Shown in pieces: positions 5,969 to 29,667 of a stretch of DNA of 64,000 nucleotides; the stretch's first letter is position 1, and each line of letters begins with the position of its first letter. Source of the DNA: an uncultured Acidobacteriota bacterium (lineage in GTDB: Bacteria > Actinomycetota > Acidimicrobiia > Spongiisociales > ZC4RG35); the NCBI GenBank assembly GCA_963837055.1, contig CAWILU010000006.1, positions 100,591 through 164,590 of the forward strand, read 5' to 3'. The notes under the pieces are model-generated. The model made no database searches. It was not told the DNA's origin and saw nothing but the letters and a program-made list of their open reading frames with translations. Made by a program: the position numbers and the translations under genes.

Positions 5969-6670
5969 ATGAGGGAATGCAGTGTTAAGGGTTGCGAACG
6001 TCTGGCCTTAACCCGTGGTCTCTGCCAGATGCACTATCGCCGCATCCTCCGGACCGGTGACATAGGACCGCCGGGTTCTAGGAGGCAGAGAGGCATCTGT
6101 TCAGTTGTCGTATGTGACAAACAAGTCGATGCCAGGGATCTCTGCCACGGCCACTATCAGCGCCTGCTTCGCCACGGGCACGTGGGAGACGCGCCTCTGA
6201 GGTCATCGGGACGGCTCTGCTCGGTGCCAGGTTGCGGCAGACCGCACAAGGCGCAGGGATACTGCGCTGCTCACTACAAGCGGGTTCTCGCTACGGGTGA
6301 TCCTCAACCCGAACGGCCCATCCGAGAGGTCAGCGGGGAGGGCGGTTCAAGCCACGGGTATTGGCAGATTCCCGTGCCAGCAGGACTTACGATACCTCGT
6401 TGGGGGTTCACCTTCGGTCGGTGAACATCGACTGGTCATGGCCTTGCACCTCGGTCGCCCACTTCGATCAGACGAGGTGGTCCATCACCGAAATGGGAAC
6501 CGAGCCGACAACCGAATCGAGAACCTGGAGCTTTGGCTCACCTCCCACCCCAGGGTCAGCGGGTCGAAGACGTCGTTGCATTCAGCATCGAGATGTCGGC
6601 CAGGTATGCGACGGAGATAGGAGCGTGGGTTGCGATCGAGATACGGGCAGCACCAGTTCTATCAGGTTAG
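5969..6670 (+). CDS. HNH endonuclease with three N-terminal C-x4-C-x9-C-x2-H repeats (two apparent indels, about 6380 and 6553)
   Basis: CSVKGC..CQMHY, CSVVVC..CHGHY and CSVPGC..CAAHY; HNH core [26 protein letters not shown] in the shifted frame; the tail [10 protein letters not shown] returns to the original frame and stops at 6670. Confidence 0.75.
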
Positions 6671-6872: not shown

Positions 6873-7358
6873 ACGCGCAAACCCGAAGGCGATGCGGGGT
6901 AGGGAACAGAGGATAATCGACAGCAGGACCAGTGCGAAGTCGACCTCGGGGACCAATACGGGCTGGCAGTCGCCTCCGCCCGCACCGTGACCGGCTCGCC
7001 TTGCCTGAACCAACATGTTGTTCGGCTTGGTGATTACCTGTCGGATGGCGGGCTCAGACTCACCTGTCAGCTCCCGGGCTTGACTGAGAAGCGCTGTGGG
7101 CCCTCGGTCGTCGAGGGCGTGTGCCCCGTAGCTCGGCAACTCCAATTCTCTTGACTGGACGCACGCTCCGACAGGATGTAGGTTCGGCGAGGTCCCCACC
7201 GTGGGGGCGGCTGTAACTGGTCGCCGTCACGGTTGAGATGCGATAACCCCCGAGCTGTCGAACCACTTCGGAACGGACTGGTCGGGGGTTTGTCGCGCTA
7301 CACCTTCGCTTGCATCAGCGCGCGTGTGCACCCTGTGGCGACTCAAGGAGAAGAGATC

Positions 7359-20175: not shown

Positions 20176-20754
20176 ATGACAACTGGAAGACGTGACGAAC
20201 GGGGGGCCACCCTCGTCGAGGCGGCAATGGTCTACGCCCTGCTCTTCCTCGCCCTCTTTGCAGTCGTCGAATTGGGTCTCGCCTTCAAAGACTGGCTGTC
20301 GGTGAGCCATGCTGCCCGGGAAGGGGCCAGGGCAGGAGCCACTTATGGTGATGACCCGACCGCCGACATCCAGATTCTTCGCGACGTCGAGGCGACACTG
20401 GCTCCGGCCGGGATCGCCAACGGGATAGATGTGCGCATCTTCAACGGCGAATCCCCAGGAATCGGCGAGGACTATTCCTATGCGCCGGGCAGCGATTGCA
20501 GCAGCAACACACCCCTAGGGGTGCCGCCTCTCACCGGGTGTTGCGACTGGACGCCTTGCCCCGAGCCGTTCCGCGACACCTACGCCGTGCCGGGCTGGGA
20601 TCCGTCGAGCCGTGATGTGCGGGCACCCGATCTCGACCGGATCGGAGTCGAGGTGGTGTTCACCCATCAGTGGCTCACGGGGTATTTCGTCCCATCGAGC
20701 GACTTCAGCACCGTCACCGATTTCCAGATCGAGCCCCAGGTGTTCGAATCATGA
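20176..20754 (+). CDS. tadE: TadE/Flp-type minor pilin (cassette 1, gene a)
   Basis: Class III signal RRDERG|ATLVE, hydrophobic helix and AAREGARAG. Confidence 0.85.
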   Translation: MTTGRRDERGATLVEAAMVYALLFLALFAVVELGLAFKDWLSVSHAAREGARAGATYGDDPTADIQILRDVEATLAPAGIANGIDVRIFNGESPGIGEDYSYAPGSDCSSNTPLGVPPLTGCCDWTPCPEPFRDTYAVPGWDPSSRDVRAPDLDRIGVEVVFTHQWLTGYFVPSSDFSTVTDFQIEPQVFES

Positions 20755-21290
20755 GGCGCCGCGGCGAGAGCGGAGCTTCGCTCGTGGAGGTTGGTCTCAT
20801 CCTCCCCATCCTGATCACGCTCGCGATCGGTCTATCGGAGATCGGGTTTCTGGTCGTCGACTACATGACCGTCACCAATGCGGCCAGAGAGGGAGCCCGC
20901 ACCGGCGCCGCGGCTGCCAACTTTCCCACCGCCGACGAGATCATCCTCGACGCGGTCGAGGAGGCGTCGTGCAACCTCCGGTTCGGGACTCTGGAGAAGG
21001 TGAGGATCTTTCAAGCCGACGGGACCGGGCAGCCCGTCGTCGGGTCGATCAACGAGTACTCGCCCAGCGGAAGCCTGACCTGCGACGCCCCAGGCAACTC
21101 CCTCAACTGCGACAACACCTGTCCATGGACCGCAGCCGGACGCGACCGTGAGCCACCCGGTCTCGACGTCCTCGGTGTCGAAGTCACCTTCTCTCACACC
21201 AGCGTCACCGGGATCTTCCCGTTCCCCACCGTCGACTGGGACGAGACCGCGGTGATGCAGATCGAGCCCGACACCAGGGGAACCCAGTGA
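20751..21290 (+). CDS. tadE: TadE/TadF-type minor pilin (cassette 1, gene b)
   Basis: RRRGESG|ASLVE, NAAREGARTG; ATGA overlap. Confidence 0.85.
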   Translation: MRRRGESGASLVEVGLILPILITLAIGLSEIGFLVVDYMTVTNAAREGARTGAAAANFPTADEIILDAVEEASCNLRFGTLEKVRIFQADGTGQPVVGSINEYSPSGSLTCDAPGNSLNCDNTCPWTAAGRDREPPGLDVLGVEVTFSHTSVTGIFPFPTVDWDETAVMQIEPDTRGTQ

Positions 21291-22783
21291 GACGGATCTT
21301 CCGACGGGCGAAAGAGGACGAACGAGGCGCAGCGCTGGCATTGGTGGCCGGCTCGCTGGTGCTGTTGATGGGAATGGCGGCGTTCGGTACCGACCTCGCC
21401 TGGTTCTACCTCAACGCCAGTCGAATGCAGCGCGCTGCCGACGCCGCCGCCCTCGGTGGGGTCATCTGGCTCCCCGCTGAGCCAGGCACTGCCGACGCCA
21501 CCGCGCTGGACATAGCCACACGCAACGGGTACGACGACACCCTCACCGACGTCGATGTGGTCCCTGCGGCCGTCCCCGGTGAGCCCAACAAGCTAGAGGT
21601 GACCATTCGGGACGTCGTCCCCACGTTCTTCGCCAAAGTCCTCGGCTTTGACACGATGGCGATCTCGCGGACTGCGGTCGCCGAATACATCCCCCCATTG
21701 AGGCTGGGCAGCCCGGAGAACCAGTTCGGAAACACATGCGACCCGGAACAGCCAGGATGCACCGGGCAGGCCAACTTCTGGGCGAACATCCATGGCAAAT
21801 GGACCGACCGGGGCATGGGCGACGCCTACTCGTCGTGGTGCGACAACGCCAACGATGCCCCTGGTTGTGCTCAGAACGCCACCGCCCGGAGCACGGGTTA
21901 CCTCTACGGCATCGAATCGACGTCGAGCTTCACTCTCCAGTTCAACGACCTGGCCTTCCACAACCAGTCCGGGGGCAACCCGACCAACGACGGGGTCCGG
22001 ACCGGCGACCGGGGCTGTGAGGACTGGGGCCCGAACCCGGCCCCAGACTGCGGGCCGTCGATGTATGTGGCGCTCTACGCGCCTGATCCGACGCCACTGA
22101 AGGTCTCGGACAACCCTCTCCTCTGCCAAGCCACCATCCCACCCCTCCCCCAGGGCCTGGAGACCGACCCCTACGCGTTCACTGCCCCGGACGGCCAGGG
22201 GTGCTGGACCCAGTCCGGGTCCGGCATCTACGTGGTGGAGGTTCGCCACGTCGACCCCGGCGCGGTTGTCGACCGATCGGGTCTCAACAGGTACTCGGTG
22301 AGGTCCTCGACCGGCAACCTGTTCGCCCTCGGCGACTTCTCCATCTACAACAACTTCAGCGGCTCGGTCACCTCGTTCTACCTGGCCGAGGTCCCGACCT
22401 ACTACCACGGGAAGACTTTCGTCATCGAGCTCTACGACGCCGGTGAGTCAGCGGCCAACGGCACCCTCCAGGTCAAGGACCCGAGTGGCAACACGTTCAA
22501 TGACGGAGAGTGCCGCATCTACGAGCGGAGCCACACCAGCCCGAACTGGAACTTGCAGCAGGTCGTCCCCGCCGGAAGTGATTGTCAGGAGCTCGTCACC
22601 CCGCAGGAGTACCACCGCCGATGGCTCAAGTTCGAGATGGAGCTGCCCCCCGAGTATGCCTGCGTCGCGGGAGGTATTCCTGGCTGCTGGTGGAAGATGA
22701 ACTACGTCTACACGTCGCCGGTGAACGACACCACCACCTGGCGGGCTTACATGATCGGCAATCCGATCCATCTGGTCGAATAG
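21287..22783 (+). CDS. tadG: TadG-like pilin-adhesin (cassette 1, gene c)
   Basis: DERG|AALAL, D.AW.YL...QRAADAAALGG Tad N-terminus; 12-Cys C-terminal domain; GTGA overlap. Confidence 0.82.
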   Translation: MRRIFRRAKEDERGAALALVAGSLVLLMGMAAFGTDLAWFYLNASRMQRAADAAALGGVIWLPAEPGTADATALDIATRNGYDDTLTDVDVVPAAVPGEPNKLEVTIRDVVPTFFAKVLGFDTMAISRTAVAEYIPPLRLGSPENQFGNTCDPEQPGCTGQANFWANIHGKWTDRGMGDAYSSWCDNANDAPGCAQNATARSTGYLYGIESTSSFTLQFNDLAFHNQSGGNPTNDGVRTGDRGCEDWGPNPAPDCGPSMYVALYAPDPTPLKVSDNPLLCQATIPPLPQGLETDPYAFTAPDGQGCWTQSGSGIYVVEVRHVDPGAVVDRSGLNRYSVRSSTGNLFALGDFSIYNNFSGSVTSFYLAEVPTYYHGKTFVIELYDAGESAANGTLQVKDPSGNTFNDGECRIYERSHTSPNWNLQQVVPAGSDCQELVTPQEYHRRWLKFEMELPPEYACVAGGIPGCWWKMNYVYTSPVNDTTTWRAYMIGNPIHLVE

Positions 22784-22988
22784 CAATCGCCCAACTCTGA
22801 ACACTCTCGGTCCCGAAAGCCCACTCTGAGTCACCGGCTGGGCCGATCGACCCCAATCGTCCGATCGCCGATTTCTGCTTCAAGTAGTTGGCCCTTTCTG
22901 CCGAAGAACCCTGGTCGATGAGCATTCGATCAGCATCCCTCGACGAGGCAGCGTGCTCGGTGGGTGGAAAGACGTGAAAGCAGTGAAC

Positions 22989-23576
22989 ATGAGGGGCAAC
23001 CAGAGCGGCACAGATCGTTCTCGCGAACGCGGGTCAACGCTCCTCGAGGCGTCGATCGTGTACGGCCTTCTCTTCCTCTCGTTGTTCGCAATCGTCGAGT
23101 TCGGGCTCGCCTTCAAGGACTGGCTCTCCGTCAGCCACGCCGCTCGTGAGGGCGCCCGAGCCGGAGCGACCTATGGCGACGACCCGCGGGCCGACATCCA
23201 GATTCTCCGCGACATCGAGCAAACCCTGAATCCGGCCGGCATCTCCGCCGGGATGAGTGCACGCATCTACGAGGCAACACCTTCCGGCGAGTCGACCACC
23301 TATTCCTACGCCCCCGGCACCGGCTGCTCCAGCACGGTTGTTCCCGCCCTCCCGGGGTGCTGCGACTGGTCGCCCTGCCCTGAACCTTTCCGCACCAACT
23401 ACGTGACTCCCGTATGGGATCCTTCAGACCGAGACGTGGAGGCGCCCACGACGGACCGAGTCGGGGTCGAGGTCGATTTCACCCACCAGTGGCTCACCAG
23501 CTATTTCACCCCGTCCACCGACTTCACCAGTTCAACCGACTTCCAGGTCGAGCCACAGGTGTTCGGCTCCTCATGA
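22989..23576 (+). CDS. tadE: TadE-type minor pilin (cassette 2, gene a; paralog of 20176-20754)
   Basis: RSRERG|STLLE; GLAFKDWLSVSHAAREGARAGATYGDDP is identical to cassette 1 gene a. Confidence 0.85.
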   Translation: MRGNQSGTDRSRERGSTLLEASIVYGLLFLSLFAIVEFGLAFKDWLSVSHAAREGARAGATYGDDPRADIQILRDIEQTLNPAGISAGMSARIYEATPSGESTTYSYAPGTGCSSTVVPALPGCCDWSPCPEPFRTNYVTPVWDPSDRDVEAPTTDRVGVEVDFTHQWLTSYFTPSTDFTSSTDFQVEPQVFGSS

Positions 23577-24130
23577 GACGACGACTCGAGAAGGGCGCCA
23601 GCCTCGTCGAGGCCTCGATCCTCCTCCCCATGCTGATCCTGCTCGCCATCGGCCTCTCCGAGGTCGGGTTCTTGGTGGTCGACTATCTCACGGTCAGCAA
23701 CTCGGCCCGTGAAGGGGCCCGGACCGGGGCAGCTGCGGCGAATTTCAATGACACCGTCACCGGCACCGATGCCGATGACCTGATCCTCGCCGCCGTCGAG
23801 GAATCGGCCTGCAACCTCAACTTTGGTGACCTCGAGGAAGTCCGGATCTTCAAGGCGGATTCGGCAGGGAACCCGATGTCTGGAGCGGTCAACGTCTATT
23901 CCCCAACAGCCGCTCTTGCCTGTGACAGCGCCGCCACCAACCTCGGATGCGACAACGGCTGTCCATGGGCCCCATCTACCCGGGACCGGGTACCGCCGAC
24001 CTTCGACTCGCTCGGCGTGGAGATCACCTTCTCGCATACCGACCTCACCGGGTTCTTTCCGTTCCCGACGGTCAACTGGACCGAAACCGCAGTGATGCGG
24101 ATCGAGCCTGACACGAGGGGCACGCAATGA
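23573..24130 (+). CDS. tadE: TadE/TadF-type minor pilin (cassette 2, gene b; paralog of 20751-21290)
   Basis: RRRLEKG|ASLVE; ends IEPDTRGTQ like cassette 1 gene b. Confidence 0.85.
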   Translation: MRRRLEKGASLVEASILLPMLILLAIGLSEVGFLVVDYLTVSNSAREGARTGAAAANFNDTVTGTDADDLILAAVEESACNLNFGDLEEVRIFKADSAGNPMSGAVNVYSPTAALACDSAATNLGCDNGCPWAPSTRDRVPPTFDSLGVEITFSHTDLTGFFPFPTVNWTETAVMRIEPDTRGTQ

Positions 24131-25623
24131 GGAAGTTGATCGAGAGGGCTCGTGACAACGACCGGGGCGCGGCCATGGTTCTGGTAGCGATGTCGATGGT
24201 GGTCCTTCTCGGAATGGCCGCATTCGGCACCGATCTCGCCTGGTTCTACCTCAACGCCAGCCGAGTGCAGCGCGCCGCCGATGCCGCCGCCCTCGGAGGG
24301 GTGGTCTGGCTCCCCGGCGCTTCCGGCACCGCCATCTCGACGGCGCAGGCCGTCGCACTGCAGAACGGGTACGACAACAGCGCACCCGACATCGCGGTCT
24401 CGCCCGCCGTCGTGACCGGGGAACAGAACCAACTCGAAGTCTCCGTGAGCGACGTCGTGCCCACCTTCTTCCTCAGTGTCCTCGGGGTCGACACGATGGA
24501 AATCGAGCGATCGGCGATCGCCGAGTACATACCGCCTTTGAAATTGGGGAGTCCAGCCGGCGACTTCGGCAACGGCTGCGCCCCGGGGTCGACCGGCTGC
24601 CCTTCCGGACAGCCCAACTTCTGGGCCAACATCCATGGATGGTTCACTGACACCGGCATGGGTGATGCCTACACCTCGCACTGCGTGGGAGCCTCGGATG
24701 TCCCCACCTGCACCGCGAACCCGATCGCCCGACCGGGCGGCTATCTCTACGGAATCGAGAGGGGGACCGGGCCCTTCACGATCCAGGGGATCGATCTCAG
24801 ATTCTTCAACACTTCCGGGGGCAATCCCACCAGTGACACCATCCGCACGGGTGACCGTGGGTGTGAGGACTGGACCCCGAGCGCCGCTGCCACCTGTGGG
24901 CCGACCATGCTGGTCAAGCTCTACGCCCCGGACCCCACACCACTCGACCTCTCCGACAATGCCGCCCCCTTGTGCACGGCCACGCTCACCCCCACCGGGC
25001 AGGTGCTGCCCGCCGCCGCCTACAACTGGGCAACGCCGAACGCCAACGCCTGCTGGACTCAGTCCGGCGCCGGGATCTATGTCCTCCAGATCGCAGTTCA
25101 AGACCCCGGCGCCACGGTCGACCGGGCCGGTCTGAATCGTTACTCGGTCAGAGCGACCAACAACGGGGCCAAGCTGTTCGCCCTCGGTGACTTCTCGATC
25201 TACAACAACGCCAGCGGCACCACAACCTCCTTCTACCTGGCAGAAGTGCCCACCTACTACCACGGGAAGACCTTCGTGGTGGAGTTGTACGACGCCGGCG
25301 AGTCCGCCGCCAATGGGACCCTCGCCGTGGTCGATCCCTCGGCCGCGATCTTCAACGACGGCCAGTGCCGGATTTACAGCCGCAACAACCCGACCGTGGC
25401 CTGGAACCTTCAAACGACCATCCCCAGTGGCTCGAACTGTCAGGAGACGGTGACCCCCGGTGAGTACAACGGGCGCTGGCTCAAGTTCGAGATGGATCTA
25501 CCTGCGGCGTACTCGTGCACCAACTGCTGGTGGAAGATGAGCTATGCCTATCCGACGGCGGTGAACGACACCACAACCTGGCGTGCCTACATGATCGGGA
25601 ACCCGATCCACCTCATCGACTGA
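24127..25623 (+). CDS. tadG: TadG-like pilin-adhesin (cassette 2, gene c)
   Basis: NDRG|AAMVL; 498 aa with the same 12 Cys positions as cassette 1 TadG. Confidence 0.82.
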   Translation: MRKLIERARDNDRGAAMVLVAMSMVVLLGMAAFGTDLAWFYLNASRVQRAADAAALGGVVWLPGASGTAISTAQAVALQNGYDNSAPDIAVSPAVVTGEQNQLEVSVSDVVPTFFLSVLGVDTMEIERSAIAEYIPPLKLGSPAGDFGNGCAPGSTGCPSGQPNFWANIHGWFTDTGMGDAYTSHCVGASDVPTCTANPIARPGGYLYGIERGTGPFTIQGIDLRFFNTSGGNPTSDTIRTGDRGCEDWTPSAAATCGPTMLVKLYAPDPTPLDLSDNAAPLCTATLTPTGQVLPAAAYNWATPNANACWTQSGAGIYVLQIAVQDPGATVDRAGLNRYSVRATNNGAKLFALGDFSIYNNASGTTTSFYLAEVPTYYHGKTFVVELYDAGESAANGTLAVVDPSAAIFNDGQCRIYSRNNPTVAWNLQTTIPSGSNCQETVTPGEYNGRWLKFEMDLPAAYSCTNCWWKMSYAYPTAVNDTTTWRAYMIGNPIHLID

Positions 25624-25651
25624 CCACGCTCGGTCCTCCTAATCTTCCCCG

Positions 25652-26503
25652 GTGCTGCCACCACCCGATTACATGCCCGCGTTGATCACGCCGTTCACCC
25701 GGGGCGGGGAGATCGACACCAGGGCTCACACCACCAATCTCCGGCTTCTCTCCAATGCCGGGATCGACGGCTTCGTCATCGGTGGCTCCAACGGGGAGGG
25801 GCCGTATCTGGAACCGGGTGAGCGGCATCGCCTGGTCAAGGCCGGGCGCCGTCGCAAGGCTCATTTCATGGTTGGCATCGCGGCCGAGTCGACTCGCGTC
25901 GCGATCAACCAGATCGAGGAGGCAGTCGAAGGTGGCGCAGACAGCGTGCTGGTGATGACCCCCACCACCATGACCCGGGGAAGGGACGACGCTGTTCTAC
26001 GTTTCTATCTGACCATCGCCGAGACGTCGACAGTGCCGGTCTTCCTGTACTCGGTACCCGGCGTGACCGCCTACAACCTCCCGGTAGAGCTGGTGTGGAG
26101 GCTGTCCCGGCACAAGAACGTGGTGGGAATGAAGGACTCGAGCGGAGACGTCGTCAGACTCCAGTCCATCATCGACGCTTCGCCGTCCGAGTTCATCCTC
26201 TACTCGGGCTCGTCGAGGGCCTTGACTGCGGCGATGGCCGTGGGTTGTCACGGGGCGATTACAGGATCGGGCAACTACGTCCCCGAGTTGGTGCTGCAGA
26301 CCCTGGCCGCCGCCAAGGCCGATCCGGCCAAGGCGAGGAAGCTGCAGAAGCGTCTCAGCGCGATCAGTTCCGACGTCGAAGCTCATGGCGTGCCCGGGGT
26401 CAAAGCGGCGGCAAAGGCGGCCGGGCTCGATGCCGGGCACCCGCGCGAGCCGTTGACCCGTCTCTCCAGGGGCGCCGAGACCTCGATCGCCAAGCTGATC
26501 TGA
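25652..26503 (+). CDS. DapA-family class I aldolase, 4-hydroxy-2-oxoglutarate aldolase-like
   Basis: GGSNGEG, LYSVP and GMKDSSGD (Schiff-base Lys). Confidence 0.8.
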   Translation: MLPPPDYMPALITPFTRGGEIDTRAHTTNLRLLSNAGIDGFVIGGSNGEGPYLEPGERHRLVKAGRRRKAHFMVGIAAESTRVAINQIEEAVEGGADSVLVMTPTTMTRGRDDAVLRFYLTIAETSTVPVFLYSVPGVTAYNLPVELVWRLSRHKNVVGMKDSSGDVVRLQSIIDASPSEFILYSGSSRALTAAMAVGCHGAITGSGNYVPELVLQTLAAAKADPAKARKLQKRLSAISSDVEAHGVPGVKAAAKAAGLDAGHPREPLTRLSRGAETSIAKLI

Positions 26504-26585
26504 GCCAGACGGGCTGAATCGCCCCTTCCTCAATGATTGCGCCGGCCTGTACCATTCGGCCCCCCAATCACCAAGGAGTCTGTGC

Positions 26586-26969
26586 GTGTCCAAGTTTCTA
26601 AGTGCCGAGTGGGCCTCGGAGGTCACATCGGCCCTCAACGGCCACCAGGGGTTCAAGAACGCCATCGGCGAGGCCGAGTTGGGCATCCAGTTCAACACCA
26701 CCGACGCCCCGGACGGTGAGGTCGACTACTACCTCCAAGCCGGTGGCGGTAACGCCACGATGGCCCTCGGCAGCCTCGAAGGCGCCGACGTGACGGTGAA
26801 GCAGACCTACGACACCGCCACTGCCATCTCCAAGGGCGAGCTCAACACCCAGACGGCCTTCATGACGGGCAAGCTGAAGGTGTCGGGGAACCTGGCCAAG
26901 CTGATGATGCACCAGGGGGCAATCCAGCAGTGGAGCTCGGCAGTGTCCGAGCTCGACGTGGAGTACTGA
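26586..26969 (+). CDS. SCP2 sterol/lipid-binding domain protein
   Basis: FLSAEW, ADVTV and AFMTGKLKVSGNLAKLM. Confidence 0.88.
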   Translation: MSKFLSAEWASEVTSALNGHQGFKNAIGEAELGIQFNTTDAPDGEVDYYLQAGGGNATMALGSLEGADVTVKQTYDTATAISKGELNTQTAFMTGKLKVSGNLAKLMMHQGAIQQWSSAVSELDVEY

Positions 26970-27092
26970 CCGACACATCGCGCTCGACTGGTCCTTTCGG
27001 GTTTTCCACGGGAGTCCCCTGGCGTCCCCTTCGGGACAACGGGATAATGGCGCCCGGTGGCATCGAAAGGCTCACCGCGCGACGGGGGATCT

Positions 27093-27638
27093 ATGGGAAG
27101 CAGGGACGGGCAAGGCGGGGCAACGCTGGTCGAAGCCGCCCTGGTACTGCCGATCATCATCCTCCTGATGGTCAGCCTCCTGGAACTGGGGCTCGCCTTC
27201 CGTGACTTCCTCACCCTGTCGTTCACGACCCGGGAGGCGGCACGGGTGGGCTCGTTGGCCGGCAACGATCCCGAAGCCGACTGTCACATCATCCAGAGCA
27301 TCGTCGCCGCCTTCGGGCCTGGTGACCTCAATGAAGTCGTCATCGAGATCTTCAAGGCCAATGAAGGATCGGGCGAGCCGGAGCCCGGGATGATCAACAC
27401 CTGGGCTCTGCGACCGAGCGGGGACCCGGCTAGCTGCGACCCGGCCGATTGGTCGATCACGGAGAACTGGCCCAGCATCTCACGCGAAGTGACCGTCGGG
27501 GCAACCTCGAGTCTCGACATCCTCGGCGTCACCATCGCCAAAGACCACCAGTGGGTGACCGGGTTTCCGCCATGGCGGGGGACGATCAATGTGAGCCGCA
27601 CCGCTCTGCAGCGTCTCGAGCCGGAGGCCTTCGAATGA
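27093..27638 (+). CDS. tadE: TadE-type minor pilin (cassette 3, gene a)
   Basis: RDGQGG|ATLVE, TREAARVG; ends RLEPEAFE. Confidence 0.85.
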   Translation: MGSRDGQGGATLVEAALVLPIIILLMVSLLELGLAFRDFLTLSFTTREAARVGSLAGNDPEADCHIIQSIVAAFGPGDLNEVVIEIFKANEGSGEPEPGMINTWALRPSGDPASCDPADWSITENWPSISREVTVGATSSLDILGVTIAKDHQWVTGFPPWRGTINVSRTALQRLEPEAFE

Positions 27639-29137
27639 GGCAGCGACCCAAGGACGAGGGCATCACCCTCGTCTGGCTTGCCCTCACCCTGGTTTTGCTC
27701 ATCGGTATGGCTGGGTTCGGCACCGATCTGGGATGGCTGTTCCTCAACACTTCCCGGGCGCAGAAGGCCGTCGATGCCGCCGCCCTGGCCGGAGTGGTGA
27801 ATCTGCCCGGCTTCCCCAACCTCGCCGAGGAGGATGCGGAAGACGCGGCGCGGGCCAACGGGTACGACCCCGATGGTGCCGACACCCTGATCGTGACACC
27901 TCTCGACGAGGATCGGCTGCACGCCGAGCTGCAGACGCAGGTCGATACCTTCTTCCTGAAGGTGCTCGGCTTCGATCATTTCGACATCAGTCGGGAGGCG
28001 ACGGCCGAGTACGTCAAGCCGGTGCCCCTGGGCAGCCCGAACCGCTGCTTCGGACAGGACCCGACCGGGGGGTTCTGCACCGCCAACATCAACGATTTCT
28101 GGGGCGCGGTGTCCGCCCCGTTCACCCTGAAAGAGGACGGCGACCCCTACTCGACCAACTGTGTCGTCAACAGCAGCGCCTCCTCGTGCACCTCGAGCAA
28201 TCCAACATTCAGCCGGGGGCCTGGGGGATATGACGGCTATTACTACGCGGTTGACGTCCCGATCGGCTCATCCGATCTGACTGTCTCGATCTACGACGCC
28301 AGATTCGACGAGAGGCCCAATTACCCGAACATCGAGAGCGCCGACGCCCGCTTCAATCCCGGTGGCGCCGGCAATCCGGGGGTCACCACCCATTTCCAGC
28401 TCCACGACGTGGACACCTCACCATCCGATCCCACCGACAATCCGTCGCTAGGCGGGTGCTCGTTCGACTTGACCCCCAATGTGGACCCGTCGAGCTCGCC
28501 CCAGAAGAACGCCTGGAGCACGCTCTGCAGCATCGGGAGCCCGACGCCAGGTCTCTACATGCTCCACGTGTGGTCGTCCGGGGTGGGATCGGGGTCAAAT
28601 CAATACTCCGTCGCCGCCGCCACCAGCAGCAGCCCCCAACCCCAGGTCTACGGCATCAACGACATGTCGATCTTCTCCAATCGCCTCACCTCGGCCTCCC
28701 AGCTCTATCTGGCCGAGATCAGCGAAGACCACGCCGGTAAGAAGCTCGAGCTCGAGTTCTTCGATGCCGGCGACGCCCAGGGGTTCTCCCAGATGAGTGT
28801 CCGCGACCCGTTCGGGAACATGCCTGCCGACTGCACATGGACGGTGTGGAACCACGACCAGACATCACAGTTGGGCAGCGGTTCGGGCTGCTCGTGGGTC
28901 ACCTCCGATCCACCCACCATCCAGCTCTTCAACAACCAGTGGATCGTGGCTGTCATCGACCTTCCCGACGACCCGGAGGCGATGTGTGACGAGTCGAAGT
29001 CTGTCGAGCTCCAGTGTTTCTGGCATATGGATCTCGACCTCTCCGAGCCCAACGAGCGCACCACCTGGCGGGCCCGGGTCATCGGGAACCCGGTCCGATT
29101 GATCCCCAACCCCATCACCGAAGAGCCGGCGCCATGA
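27635..29137 (+). CDS. tadG: TadG-like pilin-adhesin (cassette 3)
   Basis: KDEG|ITLVW, QKAVDAAALAG; 10 Cys; ends TTWRARVIGNPVRL; ATGA overlap. Confidence 0.82.
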   Translation: MRQRPKDEGITLVWLALTLVLLIGMAGFGTDLGWLFLNTSRAQKAVDAAALAGVVNLPGFPNLAEEDAEDAARANGYDPDGADTLIVTPLDEDRLHAELQTQVDTFFLKVLGFDHFDISREATAEYVKPVPLGSPNRCFGQDPTGGFCTANINDFWGAVSAPFTLKEDGDPYSTNCVVNSSASSCTSSNPTFSRGPGGYDGYYYAVDVPIGSSDLTVSIYDARFDERPNYPNIESADARFNPGGAGNPGVTTHFQLHDVDTSPSDPTDNPSLGGCSFDLTPNVDPSSSPQKNAWSTLCSIGSPTPGLYMLHVWSSGVGSGSNQYSVAAATSSSPQPQVYGINDMSIFSNRLTSASQLYLAEISEDHAGKKLELEFFDAGDAQGFSQMSVRDPFGNMPADCTWTVWNHDQTSQLGSGSGCSWVTSDPPTIQLFNNQWIVAVIDLPDDPEAMCDESKSVELQCFWHMDLDLSEPNERTTWRARVIGNPVRLIPNPITEEPAP

Positions 29138-29667
29138 GAGGGGAACGAGGCACCGCGGCCATCGAGCTGGCCATGGCGATCGTGATCATGCTGATGCTCG
29201 CCCTCGGTGCGTACGAGTGGGGTACCGGGTTCGCCGACCGAATCGCCATGACCTCGGCCGTGCGGGAAGCCGCTCGTGTCGGTAGCGCAGCCGGGGACCT
29301 GCCCACGGCCGATTGCCGCATAATCGAGGCCGCGGCCGGCTCTCTCAACGCAGTGGCAGGCAACGCCGTGGAAGAGCTCTGGATCTACGAATCGGACGCG
29401 AACGGGACCGTGGGTCTGAGCCGCCAGGTGTACCGCCCGGCGAACGAGGACGAGGTAGGTCTGGAATGCAGCGGCGGCACATGGTTCCTGTCGGCCAATG
29501 GCTGGCCCTCCTCTTCGCGGGTGGACAGCGGCTCCGCCCGAGACTGGCTTGGGGTCAAGGTCATCGTCGACCACGAGTGGAAGACGAATTTCCTCTGGTG
29601 GACTGGCTCGGTCCAATGGGAGGAAGATGCCGTCTTCCACATCGAGCCTGGTGTCGTCACCGGCTGA
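29134..29667 (+). CDS. tadE: TadE/TadF-type minor pilin (cassette 3, last gene)
   Basis: MRGERG|TAAIE, AVREAARVG; ends FHIEPG. Confidence 0.85.
   Translation: MRGERGTAAIELAMAIVIMLMLALGAYEWGTGFADRIAMTSAVREAARVGSAAGDLPTADCRIIEAAAGSLNAVAGNAVEELWIYESDANGTVGLSRQVYRPANEDEVGLECSGGTWFLSANGWPSSSRVDSGSARDWLGVKVIVDHEWKTNFLWWTGSVQWEEDAVFHIEPGVVTG

Follow-up and report, generated by a model that had tools for sequence, protein, structure and literature searches.

Three sets of Tad (type IVc) pilus minor pilins are encoded in tandem, surrounded by housekeeping genes, in the genome of an uncultured soil member of the Acidimicrobiia. We analyzed a window of 64,000 nucleotides, positions 100591-164590 of contig C6 in a metagenome-assembled genome (MAG) that we call G000 (2.6 Mb, 7 contigs, 88% complete). 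Contigs are always named as such below; A1 through C3 standing alone are proteins. Within the window there are nine intact prepilin-like open reading frames (ORFs), all on the + strand and grouped in three triplets (cassettes 1, 2, and 3), and each opens exactly where a preliminary description of this DNA had placed it. The leaders of all nine products are short, charged, and end in glycine, and each is followed by a hydrophobic helix. Based on their sizes, cleavage sites, and profile matches, described below, we conclude that the nine genes are three paralogous minor-pilin sets, each with two small pilins that have a glutamate at position +5 after the cleavage site (Glu+5) and one large pilin that does not.

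Cassettes 1 and 2 have the gene order TadE-like, TadE-like, TadG-like (E-E-G). Cassette 1 consists of A1, a TadE-like minor prepilin (20176-20754, 192 aa, cleavage site G10/ATLVE, four cysteines, 41.7 bits to Pfam TadE), B1, a second TadE-like minor prepilin in the position of TadF (20751-21290, 179 aa, G8/ASLVE, four cysteines, 44.4 bits to TadE), and C1, a large TadG-like minor prepilin (21287-22783, 498 aa, G14/AALAL, 12 cysteines, 28.6 bits to PF13400 and 21.5 bits to PF09977). The proteins of cassette 2 correspond to these one by one: A2 (TadE-like, 22989-23576, 195 aa) is 68-69% identical to A1, B2 (TadE-like, 23573-24130, 185 aa) is 66% identical to B1, and C2 (TadG-like, 24127-25623, 498 aa, 12 cysteines) is 64% identical to C1. 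Cassette 3 has the order E-G-E and is more distant. It encodes A3 (TadE-like, 27093-27638, 181 aa, ~32% identical to A1), C3 (TadG-like, 27635-29137, 500 aa, G9/ITLVW, 10 cysteines, 38.4 bits to PF13400, ~32% identical to C1 and C2), and B3 (TadE-like, 29134-29667, 177 aa, G6/TAAIE, 33.5 bits to TadE).

The presence or absence of Glu+5 separated the small from the large proteins without exception, as the preliminary description had stated. The sites in the TadE-like proteins are RG/ATLVE (A1), SG/ASLVE (B1), RG/STLLE (A2), KG/ASLVE (B2), GG/ATLVE (A3), and RG/TAAIE (B3), and those in the TadG-like proteins are RG/AALAL (C1), RG/AAMVL (C2), and EG/ITLVW (C3), with Leu, Leu, and Trp at +5. The six small proteins (177-195 aa) matched TadE (PF07811) at 33.5-44.4 bits (gathering cut-off 22.9) and the three large ones (498-500 aa) matched the Tad/TadG N-terminal family PF13400 at 27.5-38.4 bits (cut-off 22.3), with C2 at 27.5. 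The PF09977 match in C1 is slightly under its cut-off of 22.1, and this match is precomputed in many homologues. Relatives of these proteins are named "TadG family pilus assembly protein" by NCBI. Because matches to the NCBIfam models of the mycobacterial Rv3654c and Rv3655c subfamilies were only sub-threshold, we place the cassette proteins outside those subfamilies. Seven of the eight TadE matches in the genome that exceed the cut-off, plus the sole sub-threshold one, fall inside these 9.5 kb, and this clustering is not due to chance.

Genes within a cassette overlap by four nucleotides at all six junctions, five of them ATGA (including those between A1 and B1 and between C3 and B3) and one GTGA (between B1 and C1). 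The preliminary description had reported these overlaps and had taken them as a sign of 1:1:1 translational coupling. The overlaps do argue for co-translation and tight operon packing. They are no proof of a 1:1:1 stoichiometry, because a 4-nt overlap is the commonest junction in high-GC operons, and that part of the claim is at most suggested.

The pilus machinery is encoded on other contigs. In agreement with the preliminary description, which had seen no such genes in the window, all of the genome's matches to the T2SSE ATPase family, the A24 prepilin peptidase, and Flp lie outside the window coordinates. Profile searches found three T2SSE-family ATPases in the genome, as well as genes for a Tad machine, for Flp, and for a prepilin peptidase on other contigs. 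The one CpaB-type Tad machine is on contig C1, in the order polA-rpsA-cpaB(RcpC)-tadZ-tadA-tadB-tadC; the Pfam calls are RcpC/CpaB, a ParA-like TadZ, VWA plus T2SSF (a TadB fusion), and T2SSF (TadC), and TadA is a T2SSE match. After these genes, on the opposite strand, there are five tandem flp genes (contig C1, 127355-128723, minus strand, G/ASMVEY sites), of which four are nearly identical and the fifth is divergent (…SELSETYSDIGSNLVNAGS), and a NarL-type response regulator and a histidine kinase gene come after the flp array. There was no TadE match on contig C1 even at E <= 1, so the CpaB-type machine is without minor pilins of its own. Thus, this machine has pilins and no minor pilins, and the window encodes minor pilins without a machine. 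The single A24 prepilin peptidase gene is on contig C4 (35582-36361).

The distribution of the cassettes among relatives points to the CpaB-type machine as their partner. We compared 301 Acidimicrobiia genomes, of which 90 contained the TadG-like family and 194 contained RcpC/CpaB. RcpC/CpaB was present in all 90 genomes with the TadG family and in 104 of the other 211 genomes (Fisher p = 3e-22, without phylogenetic correction). Conversely, three near-complete genomes from the same order (G032, G033, and G038), in which the best TadA is of the contig C2 type only (see below), have no cassette, and in these a single TadE gene adjoins the contig C2-type ATPase. One or two cassettes are directly beside polA-rpsA-cpaB-tadZ-tadA in families f2, f8, and f11 of the order, and the polA-rpsA-cpaB layout is the same in G000; in several more distant families a TadG-like gene is 1-2 kb from cpaB. 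The relatives therefore have several cassettes beside a single machine and not one machine for each cassette. Taken together, co-occurrence, co-absence, and position in relatives point to the cassettes belonging to the CpaB-type machine.

We considered whether the cassettes might serve one of two other Tad-like systems. The tadZ-tadA-tadB-tadC cluster on contig C2 is compact and includes an Flp-like gene and two small TadE-like genes, and because of these genes we regard it as a self-contained cluster of the mycobacterial Rv3654c-3660c type that needs no cassettes. A third Tad-like ATPase is found 10-16 kb from the cassette array in most congeners, which speaks for this alternative. In the near-identical strain G019, the third ATPase is part of a 6-kb tadZ-tadA-tadB-tadC cluster that has its own Flp-like pilin and three small pseudopilins. 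This cluster is cleanly absent from G000 (window ~6998-7351), in which all nine cassette genes are intact, and it is present in congener G004, in which the cassette site is empty. For these reasons the third cluster, about 10 kb away where it occurs, is an unlikely partner and we rejected it as a candidate. Since both clusters carry their own Flp-like and small TadE/G-like genes, and since genomes with only the contig C2-type ATPase have no cassettes, we regard service to another Tad-like system as very unlikely. Beside the junction left by the missing cluster there is a cysteine-rich gene of the HNH type (window 5969-6424).

The same data bear on whether the triplets are part of a filament at all. 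They could instead be complexes that stand alone in the membrane, anchored there after processing by the peptidase and never part of the Flp filament, either as "stub" adhesins or as a guide for assembly at the base or across the wall, and the lack of linkage between cassettes and machine in this genus would fit such a role. However, strict co-occurrence with CpaB (90/90) and an ancestral position adjoining cpaB argue for a working connection to the pilus, and the loss of Glu+5 in the large subunit only is the pattern of a filament cap such as GspK. The precedents differ: TadE and TadF of Micrococcus luteus were not detected in sheared Flp pili and the authors favored a basal structure (PMC4322843), whereas the genetics of Myxococcus xanthus argue against the stand-alone reading (PMC12075869). 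On balance, we find it rather improbable that the triplets are never on the filament.

The number and type of cassettes vary at a single chromosomal location. Cassettes 2 and 3 are separated by a conserved spacer outside the system (25652-26969, + strand), which by Pfam consists of a DHDPS-family (dapA-like) gene (25652-26503) and an SCP2 gene (26586-26969). In every member of the genus that we examined, the cassette site is between sdhCAB and a conserved block of dapA-like, SCP2, (YCII), mdh, and nadCB genes, and it has two slots, one between sdhB and the dapA-like gene (slot 1) and one between SCP2 and YCII/mdh (slot 2). Family f6 uses the same position between sdh and the dapA-like gene, and DHDPS-family and SCP2 genes also flank cassettes in families f1, f3, and f6. 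Across the genus, the number of triplets at this hot spot is 0, 1, 2, or 3, and they are of at least five types, in the orders E-E-G and E-G-E. Combinations include types 1 and 2, type 1 with one or two E-G-E types, types 1, 2, and 3 (G000 and G019), and others; the E-G-E types that accompany type 1 in congeners are only 35-49% identical to cassette 3. Taking a repertoire to be at least two paralogous TadE/F/G-like triplets per genome, G000 has a repertoire of three, and relatives have 0-3 triplets at the hot spot. Across the class, genomes with multiple copies cluster in this family and order, and elsewhere a single copy is usual. The C-terminal part of such single copies is often different and longer, and ORFs of up to 1182 aa occur in the class.

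Empty sites appear to be due to cassette loss. The hot spot is empty in three congeners (G004, G006, and G020), and in two of the three a TadG-like relic of 78-99 bp remains between sdhB and the dapA-like gene (G006, locus L055, 8776-8853; G020, locus L057, 6622-6720), with 64-65% protein identity to parts of C2. All three genomes keep the CpaB-type TadA at 97-98% identity, and at least G006 and G020 have a different set of TadE plus TadG-like genes elsewhere in the genome. A further triplet type, which we call X, is present in full in G006, G023, and G008, beside a divergent extracytoplasmic function (ECF) sigma/anti-sigma pair. In G006 and G023 (locus L058, 4538-6722, and locus L059, 3624-5867) it encodes TadE proteins of 171 and 150 aa and a TadG-like protein of 427 aa with a beta-helix-like head. 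We looked for the type X triplet in G000 and did not find it, and the sigma gene looks split there (contig C3, 435662-436214).

Cassettes are old and have been kept as units. Cassettes 1 and 2 are paralogs with 64-69% protein identity, and cassette 3 is ~32% identical to both. Between cassettes 1 and 2, dS was greater than 1 and dN/dS was 0.2-0.29 in every gene and domain, and each of the two has orthologues at 74-89% identity in other species, indicating that both are old and under purifying selection. Among 48 intact triplets from the collected loci, only the orders A-B-C (33 triplets) and A-C-B (15 triplets) occurred. Pairwise identities among the A, the B, and the C proteins gave correlated matrices (r = 0.94-0.97), the clusters of A, B, and C were near one-to-one, and there was no sign of gene shuffling between cassettes. 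Because of the correlated matrices and the nearly one-to-one clusters, we believe that the triplets have been maintained as cognate units. The N-terminal helix, which would be expected to dock into a shared filament, is conserved best between cassettes (56-73% identity, compared to 28-34% in the head, for cassettes 1 or 2 versus 3). The heads of cassettes 1 and 2 are 60-70% identical to each other, and congeners have a different, beta-helix-like head on the same N-terminal module. We also looked for a hypervariable patch in C1 and C2 and rejected this idea; divergence was spread out, with identities of 0.47-0.93 per 30-residue window. At this crude level of analysis there was no sign of positive selection in C1 and C2 (dN/dS < 0.3 in every domain).

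There was no evidence for a genetic switch between cassettes. The preliminary description had proposed that the cell holds alternative tip complexes for one pilus encoded elsewhere and switches among them. The first part agrees with what we found, namely that the sets lack a machine, that a machine is present elsewhere, and that the distribution links the sets to the CpaB-type machine. Switching found no support: a search for repeats and inverted repeats, a promoter and terminator scan, and an Rfam search at E <= 1 revealed no invertible segment, recombinase, flanking repeats, or riboswitch. Apart from the paralogous coding repeats, the repeat search found nothing at the cassette region. The similarity between cassettes 1 and 2 begins within the coding sequence, so their promoters are not duplicated. 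Prey specificity, which had also been suggested, is speculation that is unfounded for an uncultured lineage of Acidimicrobiia.

The lack of a switch raises the alternative that the three sets do not alternate and are partly redundant or additive priming complexes, made together for the same or different pili with no specificity of the heads, their multiplicity serving to buffer assembly. Consistent with this, the cassette genes share their strand with the neighboring sdh, dapA-like, SCP2, and YCII genes, and the intervening gaps are short (C2 ends 28 bp ahead of the dapA-like gene), the scan found no terminator-like sites between sets, and the Tips of Myxococcus are partly redundant in wild-type cells (PMC12075869). 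However, the paralogs are old, with heads that are only 28-34% identical between types, and each type persists in different species as an orthologous lineage of its own that purifying selection maintains. Cassette content also differs between close relatives, and pure redundancy would not be expected to preserve such differences. Based on these considerations, we judge this alternative to be unlikely.

Structure predictions are consistent with a pilin-like base that carries a large head. The AlphaFold2 model of C1 (77 homologues, pLDDT 89.4, pTM 0.83) has a helix at residues 12-59, a second helix at 66-79, and a small sheet at 89-134, together a pilin-like module, and this module is followed by a predicted all-beta C-terminal head of ~360 aa. 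The model of A1 (pLDDT 90.1) has helices at 8-57 and 63-78 and four strands. In Foldseek searches against the Protein Data Bank (PDB), the C1 model had no solved relative and matched only generic double beta-sandwiches (PHM and tandem CBM22) at TM 0.1-0.2, and the A1 model had no significant match. Because no solved pilin was matched, the pilin fold is read only from the order of secondary structure elements, and matches as generic as those to PHM and CBM22 allowed no function to be read from the head fold. The number of cysteines is even in all nine proteins (12, 12, and 10 in the TadG-like proteins; 4, 4, 2, 4, 4, and 2 in the small ones) and all are outside of the N-terminal helix, which fits exported proteins with disulfide bonds. 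We regard the TadG-like head (~360 aa, all-beta, 10-12 cysteines, no relative in the PDB) as a candidate new adhesin domain.

The head also bears on whether the pilus could be a DNA-uptake (competence) organelle like that of M. luteus, with the three sets as variants of a DNA receptor or of the assembly apparatus. Flp genes from two separate tad clusters, including those for TadE, TadF, and TadG-like proteins, are required for natural transformation in that actinobacterium (PMC4322843). The heads described here are cysteine-rich and beta-sandwich-like, with a faint likeness to CBM and PHM folds and nothing like a DNA-binding module, and we consider variants of a DNA-uptake pilus to be very unlikely.

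We favor the explanation that the three sets are alternative tip or starter complexes that prime and cap one CpaB-type pilus with three different heads, and from the genomic evidence we think that this is probably correct. The single A24 prepilin peptidase would cut each protein after the leader glycine, and the A, B, and C proteins from one set would join through their N-terminal helices to form a heterotrimer. The trimer would prime Flp polymerization on the sole CpaB-type Tad machine, with its five flp genes, and would end up at the distal tip of the pilus. The TadG-like subunit would be outermost, since it is without the glutamate that contacts the N-terminus of the next subunit, and would display its disulfide-rich all-beta head. 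A single machine with three sets could thus present three kinds of head, either side by side or each under its own conditions, and these would presumably attach to distinct surfaces or polymers. We infer trimer formation, tip position, alternation, and the nature of the ligand.

Several findings weigh against the idea of alternative tips. No solved pilin resembles the A1 or C1 models, and the searches described above found no regulatory switch. Statistical support from the co-occurrence test is inflated by shared ancestry, and physical linkage alone would also produce correlated matrices for A, B, and C, which limits their use as a sign of cognate partners. With a genome that is 88% complete, more sets or more machines may be missing from the assembly. 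The congeners whose hot spot is empty retain the CpaB-type machine and have a different triplet elsewhere, so the hot-spot sets are not the only possible partners of this machine. Finally, TadE and TadF in M. luteus are required for display of Flp and were not detected in sheared pili (PMC4322843), and because of this precedent a basal role or a function in competence is conceivable for the cassette proteins as well.

The closest parallel is the Kil system of Myxococcus xanthus, in which four sets of Tip proteins (KilL/KilM/KilN) share one Kil Tad pilus (Herrou et al. 2025, Nat Commun, PMC12075869). Three of the four sets are encoded away from the machine, any one of the sets suffices for polymerization, target ranges differ between sets, and Flp-like adapters take part (PMC12075869). 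As in Kil, the cassettes described here are several paralogous sets of two smaller minor pilins and one large one with a variable distal domain, and most sets are away from the one Tad machine that would serve them all with one major Flp pilin, an assignment that in our case is by comparative genomics only. Disulfide-rich heads with no relative in the PDB are another shared property, and there is a possible parallel to the Flp-like adapters, in that the divergent fifth flp gene may encode an adapter pilin analogous to KilK or KilO. Unlike M. xanthus, the host here is a monoderm lineage of Actinomycetota that has neither a secretin nor a T3SS* and is not known to be predatory, and its sets follow one another at a chromosomal hot spot, where they vary in presence and absence and come in two gene orders. 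The head domain is presumably unrelated to that of the Kil proteins.

Other type IV filament systems are similar in fewer respects. CpaJ, CpaK, and CpaL of Caulobacter crescentus are reportedly minor pilin-like proteins of a CpaB/CpaF-type Tad machine that are involved in the surface function of the pilus; theirs is a single set in a diderm, unlike the sets described here. In the type II secretion system, a type IV filament is primed and capped by a GspI/GspJ/GspK heterotrimer whose outermost large subunit is without Glu+5. The type IVa pilus (T4aP) of Myxococcus is said to have three alternative sets of minor pilins and PilY1 for one machine. Both of these belong to other classes of type IV filament than Tad, and the analogy is one of layout. 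As far as the work on Aggregatibacter actinomycetemcomitans is summarized in a later paper (Tomich et al. 2006, 2007, via PMC4322843), its TadE, TadF, and TadG resemble the cassette proteins, for which processing is predicted, in having leaders with a cut after glycine, a need for a TadV-type peptidase, Glu+5, and two small pseudopilins with a larger TadG. That classical locus has one set inside the tad operon, whereas the three sets described here are unlinked from the machine. In M. luteus, the Flp pilus of tad-1 and tad-2 serves DNA uptake (Angelov et al. 2015, PMC4322843). Like our lineage, M. luteus is an actinobacterium in which the minor pilins needed to display Flp come from a different cluster than flp and the peptidase is encoded elsewhere; unlike in our lineage, ATPase and platform genes are present in each of its clusters and no repertoire is arranged in tandem.

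The preliminary description had offered the cassettes as a candidate for an undescribed system. This is wrong as a concept, since interchangeable TadE/F/G-like tips encoded away from their machine have been shown genetically in M. xanthus (PMC12075869). The gain from our analysis is an extension of the published idea of Kil Tips and no new kind of system. Homologues of tip1-4 were found only in Myxococcota (PMC12075869). If the sets described here are alternative tips, then tip repertoires reach beyond predatory Myxococcota, where Herrou et al. proposed them, to abundant uncultured soil Actinomycetota. A full-text literature search found no paper joining Acidimicrobiia with Flp pili.

As a broader and more tentative proposal, the interval from sdhB to mdh might be a diversity island for exchangeable Tad tips in a monoderm, non-predatory lineage. 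In this proposal, the island would have gained and lost cognate triplets as wholes, of at least five old types, each supplying a substrate-specific head (a disulfide-stapled double beta-sandwich of no described family) for the single CpaB-type pilus, which has no secretin. We view this as possible and somewhat doubtful as a whole. If true, it would mean that tip repertoires are a general Tad principle that evolved independently and no speciality of predators. Adhesive organelles of the Tad type are among the most widespread, and the determinants of what they bind have been worked out in very few species. Strains with 0 to 3 tips at the sdh-mdh hot spot would lend themselves to comparison as a natural series.

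Several additional properties of the pilus genes are worth recording. Many, and not all, TadG proteins have a vWA domain in the C-terminal part, so the domain is not strictly defining. None of the three TadG-like proteins in the cassettes had a Pfam VWA match. TadB of the CpaB-type machine (contig C1, 123034-124983, 649 aa) has an N-terminal signal peptide and an extracytoplasmic vWA domain fused to the T2SSF platform. In this respect G000 differs from A. actinomycetemcomitans, with vWA on TadB instead of TadG, and the platform protein may have acquired the module from the minor pilin. A gene for a polytopic membrane protein of 452 aa with no Pfam match separates tadC from the flp array (contig C1, 125918-127276), and its product may be a pilin-modifying or assembly factor. 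An orphan PilT-like ATPase of 360 aa is encoded ~456 kb past the end of the window (contig C6, 620508-621590), and the genome has no PilB-type ATPase and no pilus systems other than Tad-type ones; the PilT-like protein may be a retraction motor for the Tad pilus or a relic.

Two loci in related genomes had further features. In the strain that is 98-99% identical (locus L022, G019:C10:80001-100000), the genes for C1, C2, and B3 are each split into two or three frames and their neighbors are intact, which may reflect errors in a long-read assembly or real pseudogenization of tips. In locus L059, the type X triplet is followed by a large gene for an S26 signal peptidase-like protein and a gene for a small secreted protein.

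The taxonomic labels of some related public genomes appear to be in error. The nearest public relatives of the window are MAGs of uncultured soil Acidimicrobiia. Several public MAGs with the locus are labeled "uncultured Acidobacteriota", and near relatives are labeled Acidimicrobiia or Actinomycetota. The Acidobacteriota labels look wrong because the gene content, with an Rv3654c-type Tad cluster and high GC, fits Actinomycetota.

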